From: an uncultured Candidatus Saccharibacteria bacterium
GTDB lineage: Bacteria > Patescibacteriota > Minisyncoccia > Phycocordibacterales > WO2-35-19
Direction: 5' to 3'
DNA length: 64,000 nt
NCBI GenBank assembly: GCA_964548205.1
Contig: CAZJPJ010000004.1
Span: 21,577-85,576 of the forward strand
Below the pieces are notes generated by a model that made no database searches, was not told the DNA's origin, and saw only the letters and a list, made by a program, of their open reading frames with translations. The first letter of the stretch is position 1. The number at the start of each line of letters is the position of its first letter. Of the stretch, positions 19,415-58,300 are shown in pieces. A program made the translations under genes and the position numbers.

Positions 19415-20581
19415 TTAGCACAAACCACTGAGAATTTTTTTGAAATTTATGAGTATAGCTATCGATTCTTCTGGTGTTTTAGAATCCATAAGCATAGAAA
19501 GGTGTTTGTTTTTCTCTTCATAAACTCTTGTATCGCCAATAGACGAGACGGCATTGTTGAGATAAGACTTGAAATGCTTTTTCATCACAGCAAAGGACTT
19601 AAATAGAGAAAGATTTTTATCGAACATTTTGATATGCTCTATTAGAGCATCGATCCTCTCTAGTGCAGAAGCATTTGTGGTGACAAAGAGAAAAGGGTCG
19701 CCAAATATGGCTCTACCTAGCATCACCCCGTCGCAACCTGTCTCATCGGCCAGTTGGTAGGCATGAGGCACGTCTCTCACATCACCATTGCCGAAGATGA
19801 GAGTATGATCTCCCCCACCCGCTTCGCTACGCTCAGCACCCTCCCCTTGATCAGGGGAAGGCCTTGGGACAGAAATGCTCTTCGAAGAGACTTGCGACCT
19901 GCCCGCCTTGCTACGCAAGGCATTGCAGGCGGTGCGCGAAAAATACTCATCCCTTATCTCCACTGCTCTCTTTATCCTCTCCCACCTAGCAGGCACCTTG
20001 GACATTTCTTTGCGTGTGCGAGCATGCAAAGTGATAACTGCTGGTTGTGCTTCTAGTAAAGTCGGGAGCCAGCTTTCGAGCTCATCTTTGTTGTATCCAA
20101 GACGGGTCTTTACTGATACAGGTATCTCACTCTTGCCGTATTTTTTTGCACCATCTCTCACTCCCTTTTTTGCCGCTTCGATCAGCTCACGAGCAAGAGA
20201 AGGGTTCTTGATAAGTGCCGCTCCAGCTCCCTGCTTTTCTACACTTTTGTCCGGACAGCCCATATTGATATCTACTCCATCGAACCCGAGCTCTACTGCA
20301 AGCCTTGCCGTCTTCTCCATATGCTCCGGCTTGCTTGTGAAAAATTGAGCCACTATCGGCCTCTCGATCTCGTTATATTCCAGACCTTTCATCAGTCTTT
20401 TCTTTCCTTCCTCTGGAGCAAGAGCCAATCCATCGGCACTGACAAATTCAGTCCATGTCACATGAGGAATGTCTGAATTTTTTGATATGACATATCTAAA
20501 TGCACTGTCAGTAACATCAGCCATAGGAGCCAAACACAAAATCGGCTTTTTTAGATCCGCCCAGAACCCCAGATTTACCAT
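19415..20581 (-). CDS. tRNA-dihydrouridine synthase (Dus family) with a roughly 40-aa GC-rich in-frame insertion
   Basis: LAPMADVTDSAFR ... GFDGVDINMGCP ... GCDGVMLGRAIFGDPFLF. The insertion SRTACNALRSKAGRSQVSSKSISVPRPSPDQGEGAERSEAGGG is encoded by a GC-rich segment that carries the palindromic repeat. Confidence 0.85.
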   Translation of the reverse strand: MVNLGFWADLKKPILCLAPMADVTDSAFRYVISKNSDIPHVTWTEFVSADGLALAPEEGKKRLMKGLEYNEIERPIVAQFFTSKPEHMEKTARLAVELGFDGVDINMGCPDKSVEKQGAGAALIKNPSLARELIEAAKKGVRDGAKKYGKSEIPVSVKTRLGYNKDELESWLPTLLEAQPAVITLHARTRKEMSKVPARWERIKRAVEIRDEYFSRTACNALRSKAGRSQVSSKSISVPRPSPDQGEGAERSEAGGGDHTLIFGNGDVRDVPHAYQLADETGCDGVMLGRAIFGDPFLFVTTNASALERIDALIEHIKMFDKNLSLFKSFAVMKKHFKSYLNNAVSSIGDTRVYEEKNKHLSMLMDSKTPEESIAILINFKKILSGLC

Positions 20582-22024: not shown

Positions 22025-22064
22025 CCCCTCCCCTGATCAAGGGGAGGGGGTTGGGGGTGGGGTT
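22025..22064. repeat. GC-rich palindromic repeat element, copy A (CCCCTCCCCTGATCAAGGGGAGGGG plus a G-tract), lying just 3' of the ClpC-like gene and probably acting as its terminator
   Basis: Perfect 9 bp arms around TGATCAA. A near-identical copy lies at 29741..29784. Confidence 0.7.
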
Positions 22065-28050: not shown

Positions 28051-28108
28051 CCCAAAATACCCCCCACCCATTTACTTTTTGAAAATAAGTGCTAGTGTTG
28101 CAGGCAGC

Positions 28109-28225
28109 ATGGGAATCATTCTCTTTATTGTCATAGCGCTATCAATAGCGCTGTGGAATTTTAAAAGGGCGGTAAAAAGGGGGATACTAGACCCCTTCAA
28201 TCCGCCGAATCCAAATGAGGACTAG
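28109..28225 (+). CDS. candidate 38-aa single-TM peptide; weak
   Basis: MGIILFIVIALSIALWNFKRAVKRGILDPFNPPNPNED. No clear Shine-Dalgarno site. Followed by the terminator at 28238. Confidence 0.15.
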   Translation: MGIILFIVIALSIALWNFKRAVKRGILDPFNPPNPNED

Positions 28226-28237
28226 AAAAACCCCGAT

Positions 28238-28272
28238 CCCCGACCGTCACAAGTCGGGGGTTGCTTTTTTAT
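28238..28272 (+). terminator. intrinsic terminator
   Basis: ccccgac-cgtcacaa-gtcgggg followed by ttgctttttta. Confidence 0.55.
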
Positions 28273-28280
28273 ACAGAGTG

Positions 28281-28289
28281 TGATATAAT
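28281..28289 (+). promoter_or_regulatory. extended -10 promoter element (TGaTATAAT)
   Basis: tgatataat lies 26 nt upstream of the ATG at 28315. Confidence 0.4.
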
Positions 28290-28314
28290 CAAAAATGGAA
28301 AGGAAACCTCAATC

Positions 28315-28869
28315 ATGAACCTGTGGAAACATTTTGCTGATTGGTGGCTTGCGCCAAAGAAGCAAGCTGCCAAGCTTCTTCCTGAGCTAATTGAGTTGCG
28401 CGAACAACTCAATAAAGCAATCAATCGCCCCCCCCTTGACGCAATCGTTTCGTTTTTTGATATCGTGTCGATGTGGCACGATCGCATCGATGAGGTGGAC
28501 AACCTCATCTCAAGCTTGGAGAAGGTCAACTATGGCCAACACACCAAGTTGATCCAAAATTTAATGGGACTAAGAAAACACTTTGAGGACGCTGGCCGGA
28601 GTAGGTACGGATGGAATAGGACCACAAGGGGCCAGACAGTCACCGAAGACACCGTCTTTCTGGGCAACATTTTCGGACTGTGGACTTTTCCAGTACGTCA
28701 CTGGAAATCAACCAGGAACCAAGCGCGGGACATCGGTACATTTGCGGGATTCACGGGAATGAGGGAAATGAACGCCTACGACGTAGTGTGTTGCCAGGCA
28801 ACCAGATTCATTACCCCTCACGCGATCGGTATCCGTAGAGCCATAAGCTGGCTCGAAAACAATCTGTAA
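28315..28869 (+). CDS. hypothetical protein with GC-elevated sequence. The start is taken at MNLWKHF because the -10 element lies inside the longer track ORF.
   Basis: 185 aa, about 50% GC by eye, no motifs recognised; GGAAAGG Shine-Dalgarno site. Confidence 0.4.
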   Translation: MNLWKHFADWWLAPKKQAAKLLPELIELREQLNKAINRPPLDAIVSFFDIVSMWHDRIDEVDNLISSLEKVNYGQHTKLIQNLMGLRKHFEDAGRSRYGWNRTTRGQTVTEDTVFLGNIFGLWTFPVRHWKSTRNQARDIGTFAGFTGMREMNAYDVVCCQATRFITPHAIGIRRAISWLENNL

Positions 28870-29234
28870 AACCGATTCCGCCCCACCTTGAGCAATGCCA
28901 ACCAGCAGAGCTCAAGGCGGGGCTTTTCGTATTATAAATTTTCCACAAAACAAATCTAAACACCGATCACGAAGTGCCACAAAGTATTCGTGTCCCCATT
29001 ATTTTGCTACGATCGTAGTAAAATAATGTAGCCAAGTGTAAAGAATTCAAGATGTTCAGATATCAAAGGCGCCCTTTGGGATGGTTTGTCTATATCTTTT
29101 TTTATAATAAAATTAATAAGGAGGTCCAACATGGACCATGGCTAAAAGGTTAAATCAAAAGGGGAATAACCCCCAACTTTGCCCCGCCACTCACTTGTAC
29201 GATGAGAGGCGGTTTTTGTATACAAAATCAGAAT

Positions 29235-29264
29235 TTGACAATATATAGGCGACTATGCTATAAT
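29235..29264 (+). promoter_or_regulatory. consensus sigma70-type promoter (TTGACA, 18-nt spacer, TATAAT)
   Basis: ttgaca-atatataggcgactatgc-tataat. Confidence 0.55.
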
Positions 29265-29283
29265 GCAGTTTAGGAGGCACACC

Positions 29284-29397
29284 ATGAACGATGATCCGTT
29301 TGTGATTGTGTTAGTTCTAGGAGGCTTCCTTTGTCTTATCGTCGCAAGACGACAAATAAAGGAAGTCAGAAAAATTTTTGGAGGAAAGAAAAAATGA
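29284..29397 (+). CDS. 37-aa single-TM small protein, translationally coupled (ATGA) to the downstream Flp-like gene
   Basis: AGGAGG, 6 nt, ATG. Product MNDDPFVIVLVLGGFLCLIVARRQIKEVRKIFGGKKK. Confidence 0.4.
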   Translation: MNDDPFVIVLVLGGFLCLIVARRQIKEVRKIFGGKKK

Positions 29398-29633
29398 GGA
29401 GAAAAAATGCTGCCCGGAGGGGTAGCAACTTGTTGGAGTACGCGGTGGTGGTGGGATTCGGAATTGTGGCCATCTATATGGCCTTCCGCGAGCCGATCAA
29501 GCTCGCAGTCCTAAACCTCATCAATGCGCGCGTAACTGCGTGCATTGCAAGCAACCCCACAGACAATACATGGCGGGAGCAATGCCACAAAGATGGCATG
29601 AATTGGAGGAGGATAATCGTAGACAGGTTGTAA
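29394..29633 (+). CDS. Flp/Fap-family pilin-like protein (type IVb / Tad pilin-like prepilin)
   Basis: MRRKNAARRG|SNLLEYAVVVGFGIVAIYMAF fits the Flp G-x4-EY processing motif and hydrophobic core; 79 aa. Confidence 0.55.
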   Translation: MRRKNAARRGSNLLEYAVVVGFGIVAIYMAFREPIKLAVLNLINARVTACIASNPTDNTWREQCHKDGMNWRRIIVDRL

Positions 29634-29678
29634 AATGCTATTGCTATAATACTCTCTCTCCTTCTCCCCTAACACCCC

Positions 29679-29716
29679 CGCGGCGCAAGCAGTTTAGCGC
29701 CGCGTGGTATTTTTTT
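29679..29716 (+). terminator. intrinsic terminator
   Basis: ccgcggcgc-aagcagttta-gcgccgcg followed by tggtattttttt. Confidence 0.6.
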
Positions 29717-29740
29717 AATTAAGTAATTTCAATTTCTCTT

Positions 29741-29784
29741 CCCCCCTCTCCTGATCAAGGGGAGGGGTTGGGGGGTGGGGTTTT
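29741..29784. repeat. GC-rich palindromic repeat element, copy B
   Basis: ccccctctcctgatcaaggggaggggttggggggtggggtttt; near-identical to copy A at 22025. Confidence 0.7.
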
Positions 29785-29821
29785 GCATTTTCTGCCCTTA
29801 TTCTTTATCCTGTAATAAATA
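29780..29821 (+). repeat. left copy of a roughly 42 bp direct repeat flanking the mazF-like cassette
   Basis: gttttgcattttctgcccttattctttatcctgtaataaata matches 30354..30396 at 38 of 42 positions. Confidence 0.6.
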
Positions 29822-29846
29822 CAGTACAGGGTTGCTATAATATTTT

Positions 29847-30233
29847 ATGAAAAAAGATTTTAAAGATTGGCACAAAGAAAAAAGTTGCTTGCAGGAAGAT
29901 AAGGTTCGTCCATTTTTTCATGAGAGAGAAGTTTGGTTTGCCTCTGTTGGTTTAAATATTGGTTTTGAACAAGACGGTAGAGGGGATAGATTCTTGAGAC
30001 CAGTTATTATTTTAAAGAAATTTAACAATGAAGTACTCTGGTGTATACCACTTACAAAAAATCAGAAGAAAGGGAAATATTATCTTCAATTTAGACTTGG
30101 AGATGAAACCAGCACAGCCATACTCTCTCAGATTCGCCTGATAGATTCAAAAAGATTGCAGTACAAAATCGGAAACCTTGAAGTAGATGACTTTAGTGAA
30201 CTAAAAAAGAAAATCACCCAAATTCTTGGATGA
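29847..30233 (+). CDS. PemK/MazF-family endoribonuclease toxin-like protein, solitary (no adjacent antitoxin ORF)
   Basis: EVWFASVGLNIGFEQDGRGDRFLRPVIILKK...LWCIPLTKNQKK...AILSQIRLIDSKRLQYKIGNL matches the MazF/PemK fold pattern. TATAAT lies 14 nt upstream. Confidence 0.55.
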   Translation: MKKDFKDWHKEKSCLQEDKVRPFFHEREVWFASVGLNIGFEQDGRGDRFLRPVIILKKFNNEVLWCIPLTKNQKKGKYYLQFRLGDETSTAILSQIRLIDSKRLQYKIGNLEVDDFSELKKKITQILG

Positions 30234-30353
30234 TTTTCTTTTTTACCCTCTTGCGAGGGAGGGCCGAAGCCATTTGTACCCGTATTTTAGCAAATTGGTA
30301 ATTTTTGCGCAAGCGTCAGTGGTAATTGCTAAAATTAAGCGAGCAAGATTATA

Positions 30354-30396
30354 GTTTTGCATTTTATCCCCTTATTCTTTATTCTTTAATAAATAT
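30354..30396 (+). repeat. right copy of the roughly 42 bp direct repeat; abuts the topA start codon
   Basis: gttttgcattttatccccttattctttattctttaataaata. Confidence 0.6.
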
Positions 30397-32628
30397 ATGA
30401 AATTGTTAATAGTAGAAAGCCCAGCCAAAGCAAAAACAATAAATAAATACTTAGGAAGCGACTACAAAGTGGTGGCTTCTATTGGACACATCAGAGATTT
30501 ACCAAAAAGCAACAAGAAGGCCATCGATATCGAGGGTGGCTTCATCCCCCACTACGAAGTGAGTAAAGGAAAAGAGAAGGTGGTAAGCGAAATAAAAGAG
30601 TTGGCCAAAAAAGCAGATGAGGTCCTGCTAGCCACCGACCCCGACAGAGAAGGAGAGGCCATAGCTTGGCATATTGCTGAAATCATCGCAGATGATTTCA
30701 GCAAGTCAAAAGCTAAAAGCCAAAAGCAAAAAGCTATCAAAAGAGTGACTTATCATGAGATTACAGAAGAAGCTATCAAAGAGGCTCTGAAACACCCTCG
30801 CAATATCGACGAAAATTTGAAAGAAGCTCAAGAAGCCAGAAGAGTGTTGGACAGACTCGTAGGTTACGACCTCTCAGGACTTATATGGAAAAAAGTCCGA
30901 TATGGGCTTTCGGCCGGAAGAGTACAATCCCCTGCTCTAAGAATATTAATGGAACGCGAGCGGGAGATACGAGCATTCAAACCAGAAACTTTTTATGTAC
31001 TGAGTGTAGACCTAGAGACAAAAGCCAAAGAAAGGATCACTGCTTTTTGCGAAGTAGAACCAAGAGACAAGGCTGAAGCAGACAGGATATATGAAGTAGC
31101 AAGCACCAAAGATTGGACAGTAGTAGACATAAGCGAGACAGAAGTAAAACGTAGTCCTCGCCCACCATTTACAACCTCCACTCTGCAACAAGCGGCTTCT
31201 ACTCGGTTAGGTTTTTCTCCCAAACGCACTATGATGGCGGCCCAAAAACTTTATGAAGCAGGCCACATCACCTACATGCGTACCGACAGCACCTCTCTTG
31301 CAGCCGTAGCTATGAATCAGATAAAGAGTGTAGTAAACAAAAAATTTGGCAGCGAGCACTATAGTGCTAGGCAGTTCAAAACCAAATCAAAGAACGCCCA
31401 AGAAGCCCATGAAGCCATAAGGCCAACTCATTTTGAAAGAGAAGCTCTAGGCACCACAGACGATCAGAAAAAACTCTACAACCTCATCTGGCAACGAACC
31501 GTATCTAGTCAGATGAAAGAAGCTCTGACTATGCGTACCAAGATAACTGCGCAACCGAAAACTGTGGGGAGCGCAGCAAAATCTGTCCCAGATTTTGCTG
31601 CGCATGGCTCGCGCATAGTCTACGATGGCTGGTTGCTTGCAGACCCAAGAGCCAAAAGCGAAGATGTTATATTGCCAAAAATGACAACAAACGACCCCCT
31701 TTCACTAGTAGATATCAAATCAGAAGAAAAACAAACAGAACCGCCAAACCGCTACAGCGAGGCCGGCTTGATCAAAGAACTTGAGAAGCGTGGCATAGGC
31801 AGACCAAGCACCTACGCTTCTATCATCAACACCATCATAGAACGCGGCTACACAGAAAAAGATGGCAAAACTTTGAAACCTACAGACATAGGAGACATAG
31901 TCTCTACTTTTCTTGAAGATAACTTTACTGATTATATAAGCGACACCTTTACAGCAGAGATGGAAGATAAGCTCGACGATATTGCAGAAGGTAAAAGAGA
32001 ATACCTAAAGACCCTCAAAGAATTTTACGGACCATTTATAAAAGAAGTAAAATCGAAAGAAAAAATAGAAAAGATAAACAACCTCGGCGAAGCCGATCAT
32101 AAATGGAAGTGCCCGAAGTGCAACAGTAATATGGTTATAAAAATAGGCAGAGGTGGCAAGTTTATGTCTTGTGATAGATTCCCAGAATGCGAAGGTATGA
32201 GAAGTATAGACGGTGAAGAAGTCAAAGAAGCTGAGAGCATAGGCAACGACCCAACCACAGGACTTCCTGTGTTTGTTAAGGATGGGAGATTTGGGCCATA
32301 TGTCCAAATAGGAGAAAATGTTAAAAGTGAAAAGTCGAAAGCGAAAAGTCAAAAACCAAAGAGAGCAAGTATACCTAAAGACAAAGATCCTAATACAGTA
32401 TCTCTAGAAGAAGCTCTGCACTATCTCTCTCTGCCTAGAGAATTAGGAGCCCACCCAGACACAGGAGAGATGATAAGTGCGAATATAGGCAGATTTGGCC
32501 CATACATAGTCCACCAAAAAGATTTTCGTTCACTCAAAGAAGATGATGTATATACTATAAGTTTAGATCGGGCTCTAGAAATACTGAAAGAACCAAAAAA
32601 AGTAGGAAGAAGAGGAAAAAAGAAGTAA
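30397..32628 (+). CDS. topA: DNA topoisomerase I
   Basis: MKLLIVESPAKAKTINKYLG Toprim start; C-terminal zinc ribbons (CPKCNSNMV...CDRFPEC). Confidence 0.9.
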   Translation: MKLLIVESPAKAKTINKYLGSDYKVVASIGHIRDLPKSNKKAIDIEGGFIPHYEVSKGKEKVVSEIKELAKKADEVLLATDPDREGEAIAWHIAEIIADDFSKSKAKSQKQKAIKRVTYHEITEEAIKEALKHPRNIDENLKEAQEARRVLDRLVGYDLSGLIWKKVRYGLSAGRVQSPALRILMEREREIRAFKPETFYVLSVDLETKAKERITAFCEVEPRDKAEADRIYEVASTKDWTVVDISETEVKRSPRPPFTTSTLQQAASTRLGFSPKRTMMAAQKLYEAGHITYMRTDSTSLAAVAMNQIKSVVNKKFGSEHYSARQFKTKSKNAQEAHEAIRPTHFEREALGTTDDQKKLYNLIWQRTVSSQMKEALTMRTKITAQPKTVGSAAKSVPDFAAHGSRIVYDGWLLADPRAKSEDVILPKMTTNDPLSLVDIKSEEKQTEPPNRYSEAGLIKELEKRGIGRPSTYASIINTIIERGYTEKDGKTLKPTDIGDIVSTFLEDNFTDYISDTFTAEMEDKLDDIAEGKREYLKTLKEFYGPFIKEVKSKEKIEKINNLGEADHKWKCPKCNSNMVIKIGRGGKFMSCDRFPECEGMRSIDGEEVKEAESIGNDPTTGLPVFVKDGRFGPYVQIGENVKSEKSKAKSQKPKRASIPKDKDPNTVSLEEALHYLSLPRELGAHPDTGEMISANIGRFGPYIVHQKDFRSLKEDDVYTISLDRALEILKEPKKVGRRGKKK

Positions 32629-32637
32629 GATAGGTAC

Positions 32638-34143
32638 ATGGCCGAGGTCAAAGACACAAATATATCTATAGACGAAATATGGAAAGCCACAGCTCTTTCA
32701 GAGAAAGATAAAAAGCTAGTAGAGAAAGCGTACAACTTCGCAAAAGAAGCACACAAAAACCTGACCAGACACAGCGGAGAGCCATATTTCAACCACTTAT
32801 TCGCTACTGCAAAATACCTTGCCGAACTTGGCTTAGATGGCGAAAGTATAGCTGCCGGATTTTTGCATGACACGATCGAAGACGTAGGTGTAGATAAAGA
32901 GACTATAAAGAAGGAATTCGGTGATGAGGTCCTATTCATAATAGAAGGTGTGACCAAACTTGGCCATGTGCGTTATCATGGATCAGATAGACACAACGAA
33001 TCATTGAGGAAACTTTTCGTAGCAGTATCGCAAGACATGCGCGTAATACTAGTAAAACTTTGTGACAGGTTGCACAATATGGAAACACTCGAGTTCGTAC
33101 CGAAAGAAAAACAGCTTCGCATAGCCAAAGAAACACTAGAAATATATGTACCTATCGCCTACAGACTCGGTATACGAAAGCTATCTAGGCGCCTCGAAGA
33201 TTTAGCTTTTCCGTATGTCTTCCCCCAAGAATCGAGTGAAATAAAAAAGCTTATAAAAGAGAAATTTGATTCCAGAGAAGAGTCACTTGATAAATTCAGA
33301 AAATCTCTAAGCAAAGAACTGGCAAAGTCAAGCCTAAGGGATTTTAAAACTGAGTATAGAGTCAAAGGCAAATATAGCCTTTATAAGAAATACCTAAAAT
33401 ATAAAAAGGAAATAGATAAGATATTTGATATCGCTGCCGTAAGGATACTGCTCCCGAAAGTTGAAGATTGTTATAAGGTACTTGGCATAATACACTCGAA
33501 CTTCCAACCTATGCCCGGACGTATCAAAGACTTTATCGCCTTCCCAAAGACAAATGGCTATAGAGGCATACATACTACTGTCTTTACGGGTGACGGAAGC
33601 TGCATAGAAGTACAAATAAAAACTTATGACATGCATAATGAGTCAGAGTATGGTATTGCCTCTCATATGAACTACAAGACTGGAAAATCTGGGACACTTA
33701 GTCAAAGCTTAGAGTGGATAAAAAGTATACTGCCCCAAAGCTATTTCAAGAAAAATGAAGATCGAAAGGAGTATAAAGGTATACCAGACTGGATAAAGGA
33801 CTTGGTCGAATATCAGAGTAATTTTGAAGACAGCGACAGTGTCATAAGTGACATAAAAAGTGATTTCCTAAATGAGCAGATTTTCGTATTTACACCTAAA
33901 GGTGACGTAGTGGACCTCCCAAAAGGAAGCTGTGCTATCGACTTTGCATATGCCATACACTCTGATATTGGCGACCATATATCAGGAGCTATTATAAACG
34001 GCAAAATGTCAGGTATTGATACTCCACTTTCCAGTGGAGACATCGTAGATATCCAAACAAGCAAAAATTCTAAACCCAAGCGCAAATGGCTTGAATTTGT
34101 AAAGACAACACTTGCAAAAAGAAGTATAAGAAACCAAATTTAG
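32638..34143 (+). CDS. rel: RelA/SpoT-homolog (p)ppGpp synthetase/hydrolase (HD, synthetase and TGS domains; no ACT domain)
   Basis: HD motif FLHDTIEDV; synthetase core ...FQPMPGRIKDFIAFPKTNGYRGIHTTV; TGS IFVFTPKGDVVDLPKGS. Confidence 0.85.
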   Translation: MAEVKDTNISIDEIWKATALSEKDKKLVEKAYNFAKEAHKNLTRHSGEPYFNHLFATAKYLAELGLDGESIAAGFLHDTIEDVGVDKETIKKEFGDEVLFIIEGVTKLGHVRYHGSDRHNESLRKLFVAVSQDMRVILVKLCDRLHNMETLEFVPKEKQLRIAKETLEIYVPIAYRLGIRKLSRRLEDLAFPYVFPQESSEIKKLIKEKFDSREESLDKFRKSLSKELAKSSLRDFKTEYRVKGKYSLYKKYLKYKKEIDKIFDIAAVRILLPKVEDCYKVLGIIHSNFQPMPGRIKDFIAFPKTNGYRGIHTTVFTGDGSCIEVQIKTYDMHNESEYGIASHMNYKTGKSGTLSQSLEWIKSILPQSYFKKNEDRKEYKGIPDWIKDLVEYQSNFEDSDSVISDIKSDFLNEQIFVFTPKGDVVDLPKGSCAIDFAYAIHSDIGDHISGAIINGKMSGIDTPLSSGDIVDIQTSKNSKPKRKWLEFVKTTLAKRSIRNQI

Positions 34144-34158
34144 GCCAAATACTTATAC

Positions 34159-35253
34159 CTAAATACTAAAATTTTTTATTGAGTATAGATCTTCCTCTTC
34201 TTTGGCCACTTCTTCAATAGTTGGTATAGGCGTATCTTCGGCTTTTTTTATCTCATCTTGGGATCTATCATCTATAAGCTCCTCTTCTAACCCATCATTT
34301 TCAACTGATACCTTTCCTGAAGACTCTTCAGTGCCTGACACTTCCCCATCAAAAGAAATTTTTTCTACACTGCTTATATCTTTTGCAAACGGCTGCAGCG
34401 CTCCCTTCTTGCCACTTTCTACGATTGCAAGCAAAGCTTCGAGATCATCATAAGAGAAAAAATCTAGAATCATTCTTCCACCCTCTTCTCGCTTTTCAAT
34501 GCGAACACGTGTACCGAGACTATCTTCAAATTTCTCTTCTAAATCTGTCACTTCCGGATCGATATCTGATTTGAACCTTCTGACTTTATCTATAGCTATA
34601 CGCCTTGCAGCAGTCTCTGCATCGCGCACGTTCATTTTGCGTAGAATGATGTCTTTGAAAAGTACAAGCTGTTCTTCTGCTCTATCGGCAAGCATCAGGA
34701 GTGGTCGAGTATGACCTTCATTGATCTTGCCCTCTGATAGTGCATCTAACATTTCATTTGGCAGTTCTAGTATGCGCATAGTGTTGCTCACATATACCCT
34801 ACTCTTCCCGACCTTCTGAGCGATCTGGTTGTGCTTAAAACCAAAATCATCAGCAAGCTTTTTGAAAGCTCTGGCTCGTTCTACAGGATTGAGGTCCTCT
34901 CTTTGGACATTTTCTATGATAGCCAACTCGAGCTTCAAGAGTTCATCGTCCTTCTTCTCTTCTTCACCAATTCTTATAAGGACTGGTACTTGCGAAAGAC
35001 CAGCCAACTTTGATGCCCGTAGCCTTCTTTCGCCAGCAATAAGTTCGTACTCTACGACCAAACCATCTTCCCGCACTATTTCTTTCCTAGTAACTACCAA
35101 AGCCTGTAGTACTCCGTACTGTTTTATCGAATCAGAAAGCGCCTGCAAAGCTACTGGGTCAAACTCTCGACGAGGTTGATATGGGTTTGGCTTTATTTTA
35201 TCGACATCCACCCAGAAAATAGAGTTCTGATAAAAACTTGATTGACTATGCAT
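34159..35253 (-). CDS. parB: ParB/Spo0J-family partition protein with a long acidic C-terminal tail; no parA adjacent
   Basis: LIAGERRLRASKLAGL ParB box and an HTH region; 364 aa. Confidence 0.8.
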   Translation of the reverse strand: MHSQSSFYQNSIFWVDVDKIKPNPYQPRREFDPVALQALSDSIKQYGVLQALVVTRKEIVREDGLVVEYELIAGERRLRASKLAGLSQVPVLIRIGEEEKKDDELLKLELAIIENVQREDLNPVERARAFKKLADDFGFKHNQIAQKVGKSRVYVSNTMRILELPNEMLDALSEGKINEGHTRPLLMLADRAEEQLVLFKDIILRKMNVRDAETAARRIAIDKVRRFKSDIDPEVTDLEEKFEDSLGTRVRIEKREEGGRMILDFFSYDDLEALLAIVESGKKGALQPFAKDISSVEKISFDGEVSGTEESSGKVSVENDGLEEELIDDRSQDEIKKAEDTPIPTIEEVAKEEEDLYSIKNFSI

Positions 35254-35351
35254 GATAGACTAAATATTATCACAAAAACCTCTCTAATTTTTGATTTTAG
35301 TGGATATATAGAGTATATTTCTAAGTATAAAACACACAGGTGTTTTCAGTG

Positions 35352-35420
35352 CCGGAGTGGATCAAAAGCAAACTGCTTTGCTTTTGATCCGAAGCTTGCG
35401 TAGGTGGCCGACACTCCGGC
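35352..35420 (+). repeat. tRNA-Leu 5'-end copy (tgccggagtgg) plus a palindromic hairpin plus the complementary 3' arm (cactccggca), forming a tRNA-like minihelix in the -35 region of the tRNA-Leu gene
   Basis: 11 nt identical to the tRNA 5' end. Internal hairpin atcaaaagcaaactgctttgcttttgat. The terminal segment ccgacactccggca is complementary to the start. Confidence 0.5.
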
Positions 35421-35455
35421 ATGTATAATGAAAAAGCTACGCATGTTTTCATAAT

Positions 35456-35539
35456 GCCGGAGTGGCGGAATGGCAGACGCGCACGACTCAAAATCGTGTC
35501 TCGCAAGGGGTGTGGGTTCAAGTCCCACCTCCGGCACCA
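35456..35539 (+). tRNA. tRNA-Leu (anticodon CAA), class II, CCA encoded
   Basis: GCCGGAGTGGCGGAATGGCAGACGCGCACGACTCAAAATCGTG...GGGTTCAAGTCCCACCTCCGGCACCA; TATAAT at 35424. Confidence 0.85.
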
Positions 35540-54800: not shown

Positions 54801-55041
54801 GCAAACTATCCTTCAACCGGGATTTTATATACCGTCTGCCCCAAGCAGTTTTAAGATACTTTTCTCTTTTTAGAGAATCTCTGCTACTTGAACAGGCTTC
54901 ATAATATACAAGTCTCCATGGCCCGCGGTTTTTTGTAGCAATAGACTTATTGTCGTTATGTTCTTTAAGTCTTCGCTTCAGATCAGAAGTATATCCGATA
55001 TAAAACTGCTTTGGGCCTTTGATTATGTATACGTAGTGCAT
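54760..55041 (-). CDS. GIY-YIG nuclease family protein (UPF0213/YhbQ-like), paralog 2; its 3' end overlaps the predicted 5' end of rnpB
   Basis: MHYVYIIKGPKQFYIGYTSDLKRRLKEHN. Confidence 0.65.
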   Translation of the reverse strand: MHYVYIIKGPKQFYIGYTSDLKRRLKEHNDNKSIATKNRGPWRLVYYEACSSSRDSLKREKYLKTAWGRRYIKSRLKDSLQLSHVEESPNTGI

Positions 55042-55177
55042 AATTTACAATTATCTCACGTGGCTGTTGCACGAAATATGGCCTGAAATATAGGTTATCA
55101 CACATTTCCCCAAAATTCAACATTTTGCTTGCATTTTCTATCATAATATGCTATAATAAAAGTAGGAGGTGGTCATA

Positions 55178-55579
55178 ATGAAGATCACATTATTGCTCGT
55201 TTTCACGCTGGTCGCGGTGACCAGCTCCACTTTGCTGGCCCAAGGCCGGCAGGCCGGCTCGGTGGCCATCGCCGAGCACATCAGTTCAAACCTTGTGCTC
55301 GACTCAGTGAAGTGCCTGGAGCGAGCAACAAATAACAATATTAGGGCTGGAGAGAAAAATCCGGCCGAAAAGGCATCCAAGTTTTGTCAAACCTCAGTCA
55401 ACGCTGAAGTTAAGAGGAGTACGGGGGTTGCCAACGAGGCCGCAGACGCCACAAAGGCATCGGCCCCTCGGGGAGTAGTTCTTCCCGGGGGAATAGGACT
55501 TGGTTGGGGGGGTTACTACGGGGGAGGAGGCTTCATCCTCCGCAGGCCGATCGGTCGGCGGCAGATAGTCCGGCGGTAA
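55178..55579 (+). CDS. secreted hypothetical protein with a Gly/aromatic-rich C-terminal tail (GGIGLGWGGYYGGGGFILRRPIGRRQIVRR); GC-elevated
   Basis: AGGAGGTG Shine-Dalgarno site, 6 nt, ATG; Sec signal MKITLLLVFTLVAVTSSTLLAQG. Confidence 0.5.
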   Translation: MKITLLLVFTLVAVTSSTLLAQGRQAGSVAIAEHISSNLVLDSVKCLERATNNNIRAGEKNPAEKASKFCQTSVNAEVKRSTGVANEAADATKASAPRGVVLPGGIGLGWGGYYGGGGFILRRPIGRRQIVRR

Positions 55580-55588
55580 GACCGCCAA

Positions 55589-55630
55589 TCCCGTCGAGAT
55601 GCACACAGCACCTCGACGGGATTTTTATTT
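55589..55630 (+). terminator. intrinsic terminator
   Basis: atcccgtcgag-atgcacacagcacc-tcgacgggat followed by ttttattt. Confidence 0.55.
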
Positions 55631-55639
55631 ACAAAAACC

Positions 55640-55668
55640 TTGCATTTTCCACCCTTTTGTGATATAAT
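55640..55668 (+). promoter_or_regulatory. sigma70-type promoter (TTGCAT, 17-nt spacer, TGtGATATAAT extended -10)
   Basis: ttgcat-tttccacccttttgtga-tataat. Confidence 0.5.
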
Positions 55669-55715
55669 AGAGGGTGGAAGTAGATCTTCTACAAATCTAT
55701 TTAGAGGCAACGAAA

Positions 55716-56852
55716 ATGACGGAAAAGAATGAAGAAAAGATCCAAGAAAAAGGGGTGGGTGGCCCCAACCCCCCACCGGAATACCAGTGGATAGTTACGG
55801 TCCCCCAAGAGTGGTTCAGACTGGTTCTTAGGGGAGAGGACCTTGACTCAATTATCCACGGAGCGCGTGGATACAGAGTCAACGAGGAATTGGAATTTGA
55901 AAAAATCCCACCGGGATTTGAAGACGCTTACGACCTATCACCTAGACACCTCTTCCGCCAAGTAACTGGGCGGGAATTCGTCGGGATTCCCAAGCTCAAG
56001 AGGACCGGTATATACGGAAAAAAATTCCGTTGGGCCGCGTTTTTTCCAAGAACCGAAGGAGGTGGTGAGAACGGTAAACCGGTATACACGCCGGGCTGGC
56101 ACGACCAAGAAATCGTGCGGGCATTTCCTCTCGTATCGAGTTACCCTCTAACCTTTACAAATATCGACGTACAAGGTCGAGAGGTGACAACTGGCGACCC
56201 GTCGATCGTCCAGATCGCGATGACGGTCATCATCCGAGTCAGGATGCTAAGGCCACGGATCGCACTGATGCAAAATACCGACTGGCTCGGAAACGGCGTG
56301 TCCCCCTATCTCCAAGGTCGCATTGGTGACTATATGAGGACTGGAGGAGATGACACAAATATTATGTCCTATGACCGTGTCATACGTCGTGATAGATTGA
56401 ACGGTAGAGGAAGTCGGTTTCGCAACACCTTTCTCGGCACGTTGATCAATGGCGGAAAGCAAGTCGAGCGAAGCAGTTTGAGACTCTCCTTACTTGCACA
56501 GTATGGAGTGGACCTCATCGACGTGCAAGTCGTCGATGTGCAAACGAACGAAGAGTTCGAGAAGAAGCTGAGAGCACTAGCCGACGCCGATATCGATGCC
56601 GCAATCATCGAGCGGCAGGCAAGAGCCGAAGCCCAGAAGCGAAAGCTTCAGGCTGAGGCCGAGGGAGAGTATATTCGCCAAACATCAGCCGCCATTCAGG
56701 ACAGACTCCGCCGGTTGATGGAAAGCATGGGAGGAGACGCGGCTAGCGTAAGGGCGATCGAATATGCCTATGCCCTGCGCGACTCCAAACTCACCACCCT
56801 TGCCGGGGCCGGCGTCAGCCTCGTCGTAGGCCCAGACGGCACCATCCGCTAG
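55716..56852 (+). CDS. SPFH/Band-7-domain protein with a roughly 160-aa N-terminal extension and no predicted TM; GC-elevated
   Basis: ...YGVDLIDVQVVDVQTNEEFEKKLRALADADIDAAIIERQARAEAQKRKLQAEAEGEY... then ...VRAIEYAYALRDSKLTTL...VVGPDG, which fits the SPFH core plus the coiled-coil pattern of HflK/C, stomatin and flotillin. Confidence 0.55.
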   Translation: MTEKNEEKIQEKGVGGPNPPPEYQWIVTVPQEWFRLVLRGEDLDSIIHGARGYRVNEELEFEKIPPGFEDAYDLSPRHLFRQVTGREFVGIPKLKRTGIYGKKFRWAAFFPRTEGGGENGKPVYTPGWHDQEIVRAFPLVSSYPLTFTNIDVQGREVTTGDPSIVQIAMTVIIRVRMLRPRIALMQNTDWLGNGVSPYLQGRIGDYMRTGGDDTNIMSYDRVIRRDRLNGRGSRFRNTFLGTLINGGKQVERSSLRLSLLAQYGVDLIDVQVVDVQTNEEFEKKLRALADADIDAAIIERQARAEAQKRKLQAEAEGEYIRQTSAAIQDRLRRLMESMGGDAASVRAIEYAYALRDSKLTTLAGAGVSLVVGPDGTIR

Positions 56853-56994
56853 ACCCAAGCCCTGTTTAGGGCAAACCAACCCCCAAATGCATCGCTTTCA
56901 AGGCATAGCGTGAGGGGGTTGCTTTTTTATACGAAATGTGCTATAATATAAATAGGTCTGTGTACAATAACAATTGCATAAGGAGACGAAGGAA

Positions 56995-58227
56995 ATGAAC
57001 GCAATAAATAGTGGAAATGGCCGCTTGATTAGCGGCCAGACGATGGCCCAGTCTTTCTGGGCCCAGTTCTGGGCCTGGATCAAGTATAGTTGGGCGACAA
57101 GTGGGTGGTGGAAAAAAATCACCCTCGTCCTGCGGGCAATCTGGGCACTCCTGGTCGCAGGAGTACGGTTTCGGATCTTATCAGCAGGGCTCGCCGGATT
57201 GGCCGCTTTGGCCATCATCCTCGGGGTAGCATACTGGTTCGTGATGGGTGGTTACAAGTGGTTATTTAGCTCCACTATGTGGATGCTGTTTGCCACTGCC
57301 ATCTTCATCGGCCTATGGTGGCACCTTCGGAAGTACAAGGATGAGGATTTCGTAAAAATTGCGGGGGGAAAGTTCGTAGCCAAACCCCTGCGGTCAGCTC
57401 CGTTATGGGCAATCGCTGTCATCTGGGCAATCTGGGTCGCCGTTCAGGCGATAATTCTGGGTTGGCAAGGTGTGGTCGCGATCTACAAGCTCGCCGCAGA
57501 CTGGTTCTTCAACTTTTCTGGGGGGCTCGCTCTCTGGAAAGTCGCTCTGGGTTTACTCCTGCTAGCCGGCATTGTGTGGGTAATAAGCATACTCGTCCGG
57601 TGGGCAAGAAAGTCTAGAGAGGAGAACGACAAAACCTTTGGACTCGGCTCGGCCCTCGTAGTCGGCATGGTGGCAGTAGCAATACTGAACACCATACTGT
57701 TTCTCGAAGCGTATCTATGGATCGCTTTCGCAGAGAACCACACGGCTGGGTTCCTGGGAACCAACCTCTCTCTCTGGCTTGCTGTAAGCGCATGGCTGGT
57801 CAGAGACAAGGAGGGCAACCGCCCCGCTTGGTCTGCCAATGCTTCAAATATCCTATTTGCTCTCGCTTTAATCGGCGTCAGCATAGCGGGATGGGAGGCA
57901 TTCCGGCAAATCGAGGAACCGATTACTTACGAGGCGGTTCCTGGAGGGGTACTGGCAAAGGTTCTTGCTCCAATCGACGATTGGAGTAAAAACCTATCCG
58001 TCCGAGGAAACAAGTTCAACCTTGAAACCGTCCCCGGACGGAAGTTCAAGGTGAAATTCCTCGGATACGAGGTTAAGGACGGGAGAAGGATTCCTTTGGT
58101 CAAAGTTTTCGTGGTCAACGACAATGACCACGATTTCGAGACTGATGGAGTGATTCAAGAAATACTTGTTCAATCACTCGATGGGAGACCGATGAGAGTT
58201 CCAGTCGAGATGATGTCGCGGCGATAA
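56995..58227 (+). CDS. Trp-rich polytopic membrane protein (about 8 TM) with a roughly 110-aa C-terminal soluble domain; GC-elevated; function unknown
   Basis: AAGGAGA Shine-Dalgarno site; TATAAT at 56943; TM helices rich in W (WAQFWAWIKYSW..., LWAIAVIWAIWVAV...). Confidence 0.45.
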   Translation: MNAINSGNGRLISGQTMAQSFWAQFWAWIKYSWATSGWWKKITLVLRAIWALLVAGVRFRILSAGLAGLAALAIILGVAYWFVMGGYKWLFSSTMWMLFATAIFIGLWWHLRKYKDEDFVKIAGGKFVAKPLRSAPLWAIAVIWAIWVAVQAIILGWQGVVAIYKLAADWFFNFSGGLALWKVALGLLLLAGIVWVISILVRWARKSREENDKTFGLGSALVVGMVAVAILNTILFLEAYLWIAFAENHTAGFLGTNLSLWLAVSAWLVRDKEGNRPAWSANASNILFALALIGVSIAGWEAFRQIEEPITYEAVPGGVLAKVLAPIDDWSKNLSVRGNKFNLETVPGRKFKVKFLGYEVKDGRRIPLVKVFVVNDNDHDFETDGVIQEILVQSLDGRPMRVPVEMMSRR

Positions 58228-58300
58228 ATTTCCACCCTTCTCCTTATGCACACCCCCGCTTGGTTTCGGCCATGCGGGGGTGATTTTTTATAAAGCTTTT

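Follow-up and report, generated by a model that had tools for sequence, protein, structure and literature searches.

A MazF/PemK-family gene and a predicted convergent small RNA form a putative mobile cassette upstream of topA in a Patescibacteria genome

We analysed a 64,000-nt stretch (hereafter the window) of contig CAZJPJ010000004.1 from assembly GCA_964548205.1, positions 21,577 to 85,576 of the forward strand, which comes from an uncultured Candidatus Saccharibacteria bacterium placed by GTDB in the Patescibacteriota; positions below count from the first letter of the window. Directly upstream of topA, the gene for DNA topoisomerase I, two 42-nt direct repeats (38/42 identical, 90%; 574 nt from start to start) bound 532 bp of DNA whose single substantial open reading frame (ORF) encodes a 128-aa protein of the MazF/PemK toxin family, faced from the opposite strand by a predicted small-RNA gene (Table 1). 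A degenerate 42-mer search allowing up to three mismatches found these two copies and no others in the 64 kb, against 0 expected from 100 shuffles. The initial annotation, made from the sequence alone, had described one mazF/pemK-like gene between such repeats, standing between a terminator and topA, and this description holds, down to the terminator-like hairpin and T-run upstream. The right repeat begins where that annotation had put it and ends one base sooner: it stops at 30395, with a single T (30396) between it and the topA ATG at 30397. An independent Logan assembly (L001, run SRR15237813) matches the window letter for letter from 28999 to 35500, so that more than a single assembly contains the arrangement.

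Table 1. Features of the cassette locus in the window (a dot marks a feature given without a strand).
Feature	Position	Strand	Basis
Intrinsic-terminator-like hairpin GCGGCGC/GCGCCGC with T-run, closing the upstream small-ORF unit	29680..29716	+	read from sequence
G-rich palindromic element, CCCCTCTCC-TGATCAA-GGGGAGGGG then TTGGGGGGTGGG	29743..29779	+	sequence; hairpin part 29743-29767
Left 42-nt repeat, predicted duplicate of the topA core promoter and short leader, facing the toxin gene	29780..29821	+	repeat search; motif kept before topA in relatives
Left flank of the insert, 25 nt	29822..29846	+	sequence
MazF/PemK-family endoribonuclease-type toxin, 128 aa, extra N-terminal helix	29847..30233	+	Pfam PF02452; AlphaFold2 fold
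20-bp inverted repeat across the toxin stop codon, A-run/T-run flanks: putative bidirectional terminator	30202..30245	.	95% complementary; folds
Predicted small RNA, ~75 nt	30203..30279	-	covariance model R1; covariation; fold
Predicted small-RNA promoter: -35 TTGCGC (30312-30307), 17-nt spacer, TG-extended -10 TAAAAT (30289-30284)	30284..30312	-	sequence; 76-locus comparison
Right flank of the insert, 41 nt, contains TTGCTAAAAT (+ strand)	30313..30353	.	sequence
Right 42-nt repeat, predicted topA promoter in use	30354..30395	+	repeat search; relatives' motif
topA, DNA topoisomerase I, 743 aa, intact	30397..32628	+	Toprim, Topoisom_bac and Zn_ribbon_Top1 domains

Each repeat carries a recognisable promoter. 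The left one has a -35 TTGCAT (29783-29788), a 17-nt spacer and a -10 TATCCT (29806-29811). An extended -10 promoter, TGcTATAAT, follows in the left flank at 29833-29841, leaving 5 nt to the toxin ATG; TTGCTATAAT in this flank is a generic promoter motif that recurs across the lineage. The right one has TTGCAT at 30357-30362 and TATTCT at 30380-30385, with the topA ATG 11 nt past the -10, which leaves a very short leader. The right flank of the insert (30313-30353) was compared with other loci, and no significant match was found.

The predicted protein matches the Pfam profile PemK_toxin (PF02452) over residues 42-127 (E 1.2e-10, 42 bits against a cut-off of 23.1), and its AlphaFold2 model, built with 49 homologues, reaches a predicted local distance difference test score of 84.4. 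When this model was compared with the PDB by Foldseek, the top 50 matches were all MazF, EndoA or MoxT (template modelling score 0.60-0.80, probability 1.00), including the MazF enzymes of S. aureus, B. subtilis, M. tuberculosis and E. coli, with those of S. aureus and B. subtilis first (0.65-0.77). R51-P52 does not vary across the aligned family members, and P68-L69-T70 is conserved (T70 in at least 90%); a profile alignment places R51 and T70 on R25 and T48 of B. subtilis MazF, the catalytic residues of that enzyme. The protein also has an additional N-terminal helix (residues 6-17, in a region of ~27 aa) with invariant W8 and K12. Its sequence is remote from the solved MazFs (phmmer against PDB sequences, E ~0.15), and the NCBIfam MazF equivalog model gave 18 bits against a cut-off of 120. 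No defence family among the PADLOC models matched the toxin, and a search of IMG/VR viral contigs found no homologue. Profile, modelled fold and catalytic residues agree in making the predicted product a member of the MazF/PemK-fold family, in agreement with the MazF/PemK-fold hallmarks noted in the initial annotation, and the 128-aa protein is presumably toxic. The family comprises 1286 homologue clusters (E <=1e-3), typically of 128-130 aa. Conservation within the family is very high, at a mean column identity of 70%. The best 120 homologues, the self-match aside, are 62-79% identical to the query, and the named sources among these 120 are Parcubacteria/Patescibacteria groups or unclassified 'bacterium' metagenome-assembled genomes (MAGs).

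We compared the window with 80 metagenomic loci whose toxin homologues are 53-77% identical to it. None of these loci, nor the window, has a conserved small ORF before or after the toxin gene, in line with the earlier statement that no antitoxin ORF accompanies it; with no adjacent protein antitoxin, the locus is not a type II toxin-antitoxin (TA) system. Two minus-strand small ORFs (30243-30362 and 30214-30312) were considered as antitoxins and rejected: they span the RNA promoter, and hairpin stem differences between loci are not multiples of three. Since the stem lengths vary in this way, the downstream element contains no conserved small ORF.

The DNA that follows the toxin stop codon does form a conserved block, present in every locus that retains downstream sequence. 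The word 'solitary' in the initial annotation therefore stands as far as a protein partner is concerned and fails for this block, in which a search for a small antisense RNA, proposed along with that annotation, found a predicted convergent RNA gene (~30279 to 30203) and its promoter. From its 5' end the predicted RNA reads 5'-(G)UACAAAU, hairpin P1 GGC[UUCG]GCC (30262-30271), CU, hairpin P2 CCCUC[GCAA]GAGGG (30246-30259), a terminator hairpin (helix 3) and a U-run. The bidirectional terminator would be common to both transcripts, so that their 3' ends are complementary over ~40 nt, and the final ~40 nt of the RNA would lie antisense to the end of the toxin mRNA. Eighteen sequences were used to build a covariance model (R1), which matches the window at 30196-30280 on the minus strand (40.5 bits, E 9e-11) and matches beside every toxin copy that retains downstream sequence, always antisense; the exception, L114, is cut at a contig end (L numbers denote individual loci). 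Across 992 kb of toxin-free topA loci R1 gave one weak match (L016), which we rejected as an RNA element, it being an ordinary terminator only.

Comparison of 76 loci revealed a promoter ahead of the RNA with a spacer of 16-17 nt and a -10 of TATACT/TATAAT; its -35 matches TTGACA at all six positions in 45 loci, and 47 have a TG extension. P1 follows the end of the -10 after 12 nt in 51 loci and after 13 nt in 10; in the window the gap is likewise 12 nt. The leader, (U)ACAAAU, is short, and P1 is essentially invariant. P2 occurs as 20 distinct stems of 4-9 bp, all fully complementary, with a GNRA loop in 63/67 distinct sequences (GCAA in 32, GAAA in 24, GUAA in 7). A MAFFT alignment with RNAalifold recovered P1 alone because the stems differ in length, and was replaced by explicit hairpin parsing and covariance-model alignment. 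Aligned in this manner, 68 distinct sequences have 98.5% of their pair cells paired, against 77% after shuffling and 47-60% with slid partners, and both sides have changed in 16 of 19 pairs, including 7/7 of P2 and 9/9 of the terminator helix. These figures lean towards the structure, since the model had guided the alignment to it, and helix 3 shares sequence with the coding region. The raw list of P2 stems, which is free of the model, displays the same covariation. The window RNA folds into the same three hairpins (minimum free energy -33.4 kcal/mol, z -6.3). Rfam 15, searched over 29600-30500 at E values up to 10, returned chance-level matches only (E 0.12-7, far below gathering scores), and the whole window at gathering thresholds yielded 8 tRNAs and nothing else. 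Together, these comparisons make it very probable that the small-RNA gene is real, and the RNA would be transcribed from the predicted promoter. The anatomy of the locus as set out here we hold with high confidence.

MazF homologues can occur without an adjacent antitoxin: Myxococcus xanthus MazF-mx is solitary, without a neighbouring mazE, and is reported to be controlled in trans by MrpC (PMC4803016, PMC2701414). The toxin of the window might similarly be a lone one whose protein antitoxin lies elsewhere or is absent, with the RNA doing another job, such as governing read-through towards the essential gene that follows; the window covers no more than 64 kb of the genome, and a Nitratiruptor homologue does have a neighbour resembling ribbon-helix-helix (RHH) proteins. 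Set against this, a trans-acting antitoxin would be needed in every recipient genome, and toxin and RNA strictly co-occur and move jointly through many genomic contexts, so that, unlike the situation of MazF-mx, a cis-encoded RNA travels with the gene. The invariant P1 and 5' leader, moreover, point to a specific partner. We consider a lone toxin with an unrelated RNA unlikely.

The block could also belong to the plus strand, as a terminator with stabilising hairpins in the 3' untranslated region or as an insulator, leaving the toxin to be controlled otherwise. Folding by itself does little to separate the strands: the hairpins form on either one (plus-strand fold -29.0 kcal/mol, z -5.0), and helices 1 and 2 pair almost equally on both. 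In contrast, the near-consensus sigma-70 promoter at a fixed distance exists on the minus strand only, as do the GNRA and UUCG loops, which read UUNC and CGAA on the plus strand. Helix 3 contains 48 G.U pairs on the minus strand versus 5 on the plus, and is paired at 97.9% versus 90.2%. Furthermore, the conserved block lies beyond the T-run of the toxin's terminator, so little of it would be present in the toxin mRNA. The promoter, the tetraloops and the G.U asymmetry of helix 3 indicate that the minus strand is the RNA-coding one, and a plus-strand role is quite improbable.

Across the family, nothing is conserved upstream of the toxin ATG, and on the right-hand side conservation stops just past the -35 of the RNA promoter, so the unit consists of the toxin and the RNA gene, ~475 bp. 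Its neighbours vary (gap-rpiB, atpG-atpD, mreB, pheS, the lepA region and GH57 among them) with no recurring partner ORF, and the cassettes are mostly co-directional among housekeeping genes. Tandem cassettes occur, three in L130 and L144 and two in L100 and L162. Where enough flanking DNA was available, we compared the upstream flank with the DNA beyond the RNA gene: direct repeats scoring >20 flank the cassette in 9 of 52 non-redundant single-cassette loci (~1 in 6), and none were obtained in shuffled and reverse-complement controls. These duplications differ in sequence and in length, from 25 to 97 nt (63 in L136, 53 in L158, 55 in L082, 39 in L125 and 42 in the window), and typically take in either the promoter or the opening codons of the gene that follows. 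The rpiB ATG and 14 codons, for example, lie in the upstream copy of L082. In L162 a cassette sits inside the pheS frame between two copies, 97% identical, of a 97-nt stretch from the 5' part of the pheS coding sequence, and a 43-aa PheS N-terminal fragment remains upstream. As judged from these neighbours and flanks, the predicted toxin-RNA unit is mobile, and the window exemplifies a habit of the family: the cassette enters where a housekeeping gene starts, and the duplication leaves that gene whole.

The topA site itself was examined through a TopA search with one genome per species, which gave 80 loci (TopA 61-75% identical) from Zambryskibacteria-like and other Paceibacteria MAGs. The order dprA-topA-relA is conserved in these 80 related species, and in 0/80 does a toxin homologue lie between dprA and topA; only L070 has one nearby (38%), on the other side of dprA. 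The closest relatives carry a single motif resembling the 42-nt repeat (R42) directly before the topA ATG, for example AGTTTTGCATTTTATTTAATTTTTCTTTATTCTG in L005 and GTTTTTGCAATTTTTGGTTTTATTCTTTATTCTT in L021, and a similar single-copy motif precedes topA in L008, L024, L015, L018, L010 and L007. The motif consists of a -35 TTGCAT/TTGCTT, a 17-nt spacer, a -10 TATTCT and a very short leader, from which we read the 42-nt repeat as the topA core promoter plus a short leader, just as the initial annotation had called the duplicated segment promoter-proximal topA sequence. In L004, L024, L011, L005 and L002 a G-rich hairpin followed by GGGGTGAGGT stands immediately before the topA promoter, and in the window the G-rich element adjoins the left repeat copy only, which argues that the left copy has kept the ancestral upstream context. 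The predicted ancestral order is therefore G-rich hairpin, R42, topA, and this order, together with the empty site in 80/80 relatives, argues for insertion with target duplication, here of 532 bp (29822-30353) just before the topA ATG with a 42-bp duplication. The earlier proposal that the cassette had inserted by duplicating its target gains support from these empty sites, from the single-copy R42-like motif of the closest relatives and from the comparable duplications around homologous cassettes. A strain-level empty site was sought by exact TopA and DprA look-ups, which retrieved the same contig only, or nothing.

The very high conservation of the family and the usual co-directional position of the cassette among housekeeping genes would also suit a domesticated, non-toxic RNase of Paceibacteria, acting for instance in RNA processing with the RNA as its substrate or cofactor, the varying locations then reflecting genome shuffling. 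What speaks against it is the absence of the cassette from the topA site of the 80 relatives, the target duplications flanking cassettes, the tandem copies and the homologues on plasmids and prophages of Campylobacterota, which are hallmarks of a selfish mobile module, and we regard domestication as decidedly improbable. That nothing was inserted at all, the 42-nt repeat being a pre-existing tandem promoter duplication or the toxin being ancestral and lost elsewhere, is barely credible: in its favour, the look-ups yielded no strain-level empty site, but the recognisable R42-like motif is single-copy in the closest relatives, the toxin is at the site in 0/80, the G-rich element that adjoins the topA promoter in relatives adjoins the left copy only here, and unrelated loci repeat the pattern with different duplicated sequences.

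Compared with known systems, the locus shares with MazEF and PemIK (Kid-Kis) of type II the PemK_toxin profile, the MazF fold and the catalytic Arg and Thr; it differs in having no MazE/PemI-like or other adjacent protein antitoxin, an extra N-terminal helix and a remote sequence. In type I TA pairs such as txpA/RatA and bsrG/SR4 of B. subtilis, convergent antisense RNAs overlap the 3' end of the toxin transcript. The cassette resembles these in its predicted layout of convergent genes with their own promoters, shared terminator and ~40 nt of perfect complementarity; here a predicted convergent RNA with a promoter and terminator overlaps the toxin 3' end over ~40 nt. However, its toxin is a 128-aa enzyme of RNase fold, where theirs are small membrane peptides. 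The best-conserved stretch of the RNA falls beyond the overlap and lacks complementarity to the toxin mRNA, and no Rfam antitoxin family matches. Type III systems (ToxIN, CptIN, TenpIN) place a tandem-repeat RNA, processed by the toxin, upstream on the same strand, and their toxins are ToxN/AbiQ. They share with the cassette an RNase toxin of the Kid/MazF class and a structured RNA that could bind the toxin, and the invariance of P1 and the leader would fit binding by a protein; one locus (L109, 2887-3013) contains two tandem P2-P1 modules in its RNA, resembling the repeat organisation of type III antitoxins. The layout is nevertheless a different one, as a single copy of the RNA gene follows the toxin gene on the other strand, and the toxin belongs to the PemK family and not to ToxN/AbiQ.

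The cassette is small, recurs at many sites, at times as tandem copies, and can have direct repeats of its target on either side; in these respects it also recalls insertion sequences, miniature inverted-repeat transposable elements (MITEs) and integron cassettes. The toxin is its sole ORF, there are no inverted repeats beyond the terminator, and the duplications of 25-97 nt are neither fixed nor short. The 3' element consists of a promoter and tetraloop hairpins without an attC core, the flanks are duplicated target, and tandem copies belong to one gene family. We therefore ruled out an integron or insertion-sequence reading, there being no recombinase in the cassette, no attC core, no terminal inverted repeats and a variable duplication length; the 64-kb window was viewed through its ORF list only, with no dedicated integrase screen.

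Distant full-length homologues (27-43% identity) occur on Campylobacterota plasmids and prophages, at sites that include C. jejuni pVir (NC_005012.1 30630-31034; L168/L169), CJIE4 prophages and Helicobacter plasmids, and also KF751793-7. The homologue on pVir of C. jejuni 81-176 (WP_011117588.1) is solitary and the only toxin-like gene annotated on the plasmid. It aligns with our toxin over the full length, including the N-terminal region (hhalign probability 98.7%, E 3.6e-16, ~30% identical), and two hairpins follow its stop codon; R1 gave no score on the Campylobacter downstream region. In two papers a type I pair on pVir, the small RNA cjrA and the protein CjpT, is cited as validated (PMC7826846, PMC10470494, citing Shen et al. 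2016 Mol Microbiol 101:909). It is possible that CjpT is the pVir homologue; if so, there is one experimental precedent for control of this MazF subfamily by an RNA, and the cassette of the candidate phyla radiation (CPR) would be a distant, structurally different relative. The cjrA RNA is reportedly 33 nt, much shorter than the RNA described here.

Our best reading overall, which we think somewhat more probable than its alternatives combined, is that of a mobile two-gene cassette of Patescibacteria, consisting of a MazF toxin and a convergent RNA antitoxin, inserted at topA. That the RNA is the antitoxin of this toxin is, taken by itself, an evenly balanced proposition. According to this reading, the cassette would have landed immediately upstream of the topA start and duplicated the 42-bp promoter and leader; topA would now be transcribed from the right copy, and the toxin from the left copy and from its own extended -10. 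The RNA might restrain the toxin by antisense pairing with the 3' end of the toxin mRNA, in a type I-like manner, or bind the toxin directly through its invariant 5' domain, in a type III-like manner, or both modes might operate. Insertion could have come about through template switching during replication or through illegitimate recombination, a mechanism we propose with low confidence, and selection would then keep only those events that duplicate the 5' end of an essential gene.

Several observations weigh against this reading. The 5' domain of the RNA pairs with the toxin initiation region at -19.8 kcal/mol, compared with -18.5 for shuffles, so there is no excess complementarity, and a purely antisense model leaves the conservation of this domain unexplained. 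Since leader, P1 and P2, where conservation of the RNA is strongest, are not in the overlap and have no such excess, direct, type III-like recognition of the 5' domain by the toxin seems at least as likely as the antisense mode. In the window the -35 of the predicted RNA promoter, TTGCGC, fits the consensus at just 4/6 positions, and the lean of the covariation figures towards the modelled structure counts in the same direction. A Nitratiruptor plasmid homologue (NZ_AP023062.1 24558-25218, L166) is followed by an RHH-like ORF of 62 aa; some family members may therefore be ordinary type II systems, and the type of partner may vary. The cassette has neither transposase nor integrase, the 25-97-nt spread of the duplications fits no known transposition chemistry, and the microhomology at the junction is 'ATA' only, 3 nt, too weak to support a mechanism. 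Finally, the empty-site evidence comes from species whose TopA is just 61-75% identical, no strain-level relative having been found. A wider proposal, that this is a widespread, as yet undescribed kind of minimal selfish CPR element, a type I/III hybrid of MazF toxin and convergent RNA antitoxin that inserts without a recombinase at promoters or first codons of essential genes, its long variable duplications keeping the host gene intact and handing its promoter to the toxin, we put forward as tentative and, at present, doubtful.

Some cassettes of the family have features that set them apart. A DnaA-box-like 9-mer, TTATCCACA (up to 1 mismatch), occurs in 16/66 distinct cassettes (L106, L128, L133 and L161 among them) against ~1.6 expected, mostly fixed at 53-55 nt upstream of P1 and just upstream of the -35 of the small RNA, which suggests that in some cassettes the RNA promoter is under the control of DnaA; the window lacks the 9-mer. 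The subgroup L083-L095 has a leader, TGCTATACTTTCCGCCATGAAACC(T/A)GACGAAC, ~35 nt before the toxin ATG, with a mini-ORF (MKPDEHE*) overlapping the toxin start, and may thus possess a leader peptide or translational coupling device; it too is missing from the window. At L162 (2239-3640; GCA_016181845.1, JACOYO010000007.1), two tandem toxin-RNA cassettes precede pheS. Caught between the two is a PheS N-terminal fragment of 43 aa whose promoter and first codons differ, and a second repeat of 44 nt (75%), comprising promoter and ATG, brackets the whole pair, a layout that reads as evidence of a nested or recombinational history.

Elsewhere in the window, the G-rich palindromic element, CCCCTC(T/C)CCTGATCAAGGGGAGGGG then TTGGGGGGTGGGG, is found in three copies: left of the cassette (29745-29779, +), after the stop codon of a ClpB-like gene (22027-22062, +) and, degenerate, inside a Dus ORF (19838-19860, -; ...PSPDQGEG...). 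It looks like a dispersed terminator element akin to repetitive extragenic palindromic (REP) sequences or MITEs. The spacer between dprA and topA (window 28051-29640 region), 2.35 kb long here and from ~50 nt to 3.6 kb in relatives, appears to be an insertion hot spot. It contains lineage-specific ORFs with no Pfam match, of 202 aa (28261-28869), 44 aa (29263-29397) and 79 aa (29394-29633), the last with an N-terminus, NLLEYAVVVGFGIVAI, that we take to be reminiscent of Flp-type pilins; a perfect TTGACA-18-TATAAT promoter lies at 29235-29264. Between 20600 and 22000, ~1.4 kb are devoid of any ORF of at least 90 aa, with a G+C content of 0.47-0.48 against ~0.40 and several GC-rich hairpins. The best Rfam match over this interval, at E 0.0085, is far below the gathering score, and the region could be an unrecognised non-coding RNA or decayed genes. 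Positions 55000-58300, over an SPFH/Band-7 gene (55674-56852) and a 417-aa ORF (56974-58227), have a G+C content of 0.49-0.54 and may have been gained by horizontal transfer.

In the largest TA families, more than half of the toxin homologues have been reported without a partner gene (PMC2701414). For one large MazF subfamily, whose named members in the 1286 clusters are nearly all Patescibacteria, our analysis suggests that the partner is an RNA invisible to gene callers. Solitary MazF genes as such were already known, MazF-mx being an example (PMC4803016). What appears to be new is a conserved RNA motif with strong covariation and no Rfam match that travels with a large MazF subfamily in Patescibacteria, and the evidence, drawn from comparison of loci, that the predicted toxin-RNA unit moves between sites, entering essential genes at their 5' ends and leaving target duplications that are long and of variable length. 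Control by an RNA antitoxin would extend this mode of regulation to a bona fide MazF-fold enzyme, with a possible link to the case reported from Campylobacter. A habit of landing where essential genes begin (topA, pheS, rpiB, atpD), with duplications that are long and vary in length, is unusual as a signature of insertion. If general, it would be a new way in which ultra-small bacteria, with their tightly packed genomes, gain genes and capture promoters.

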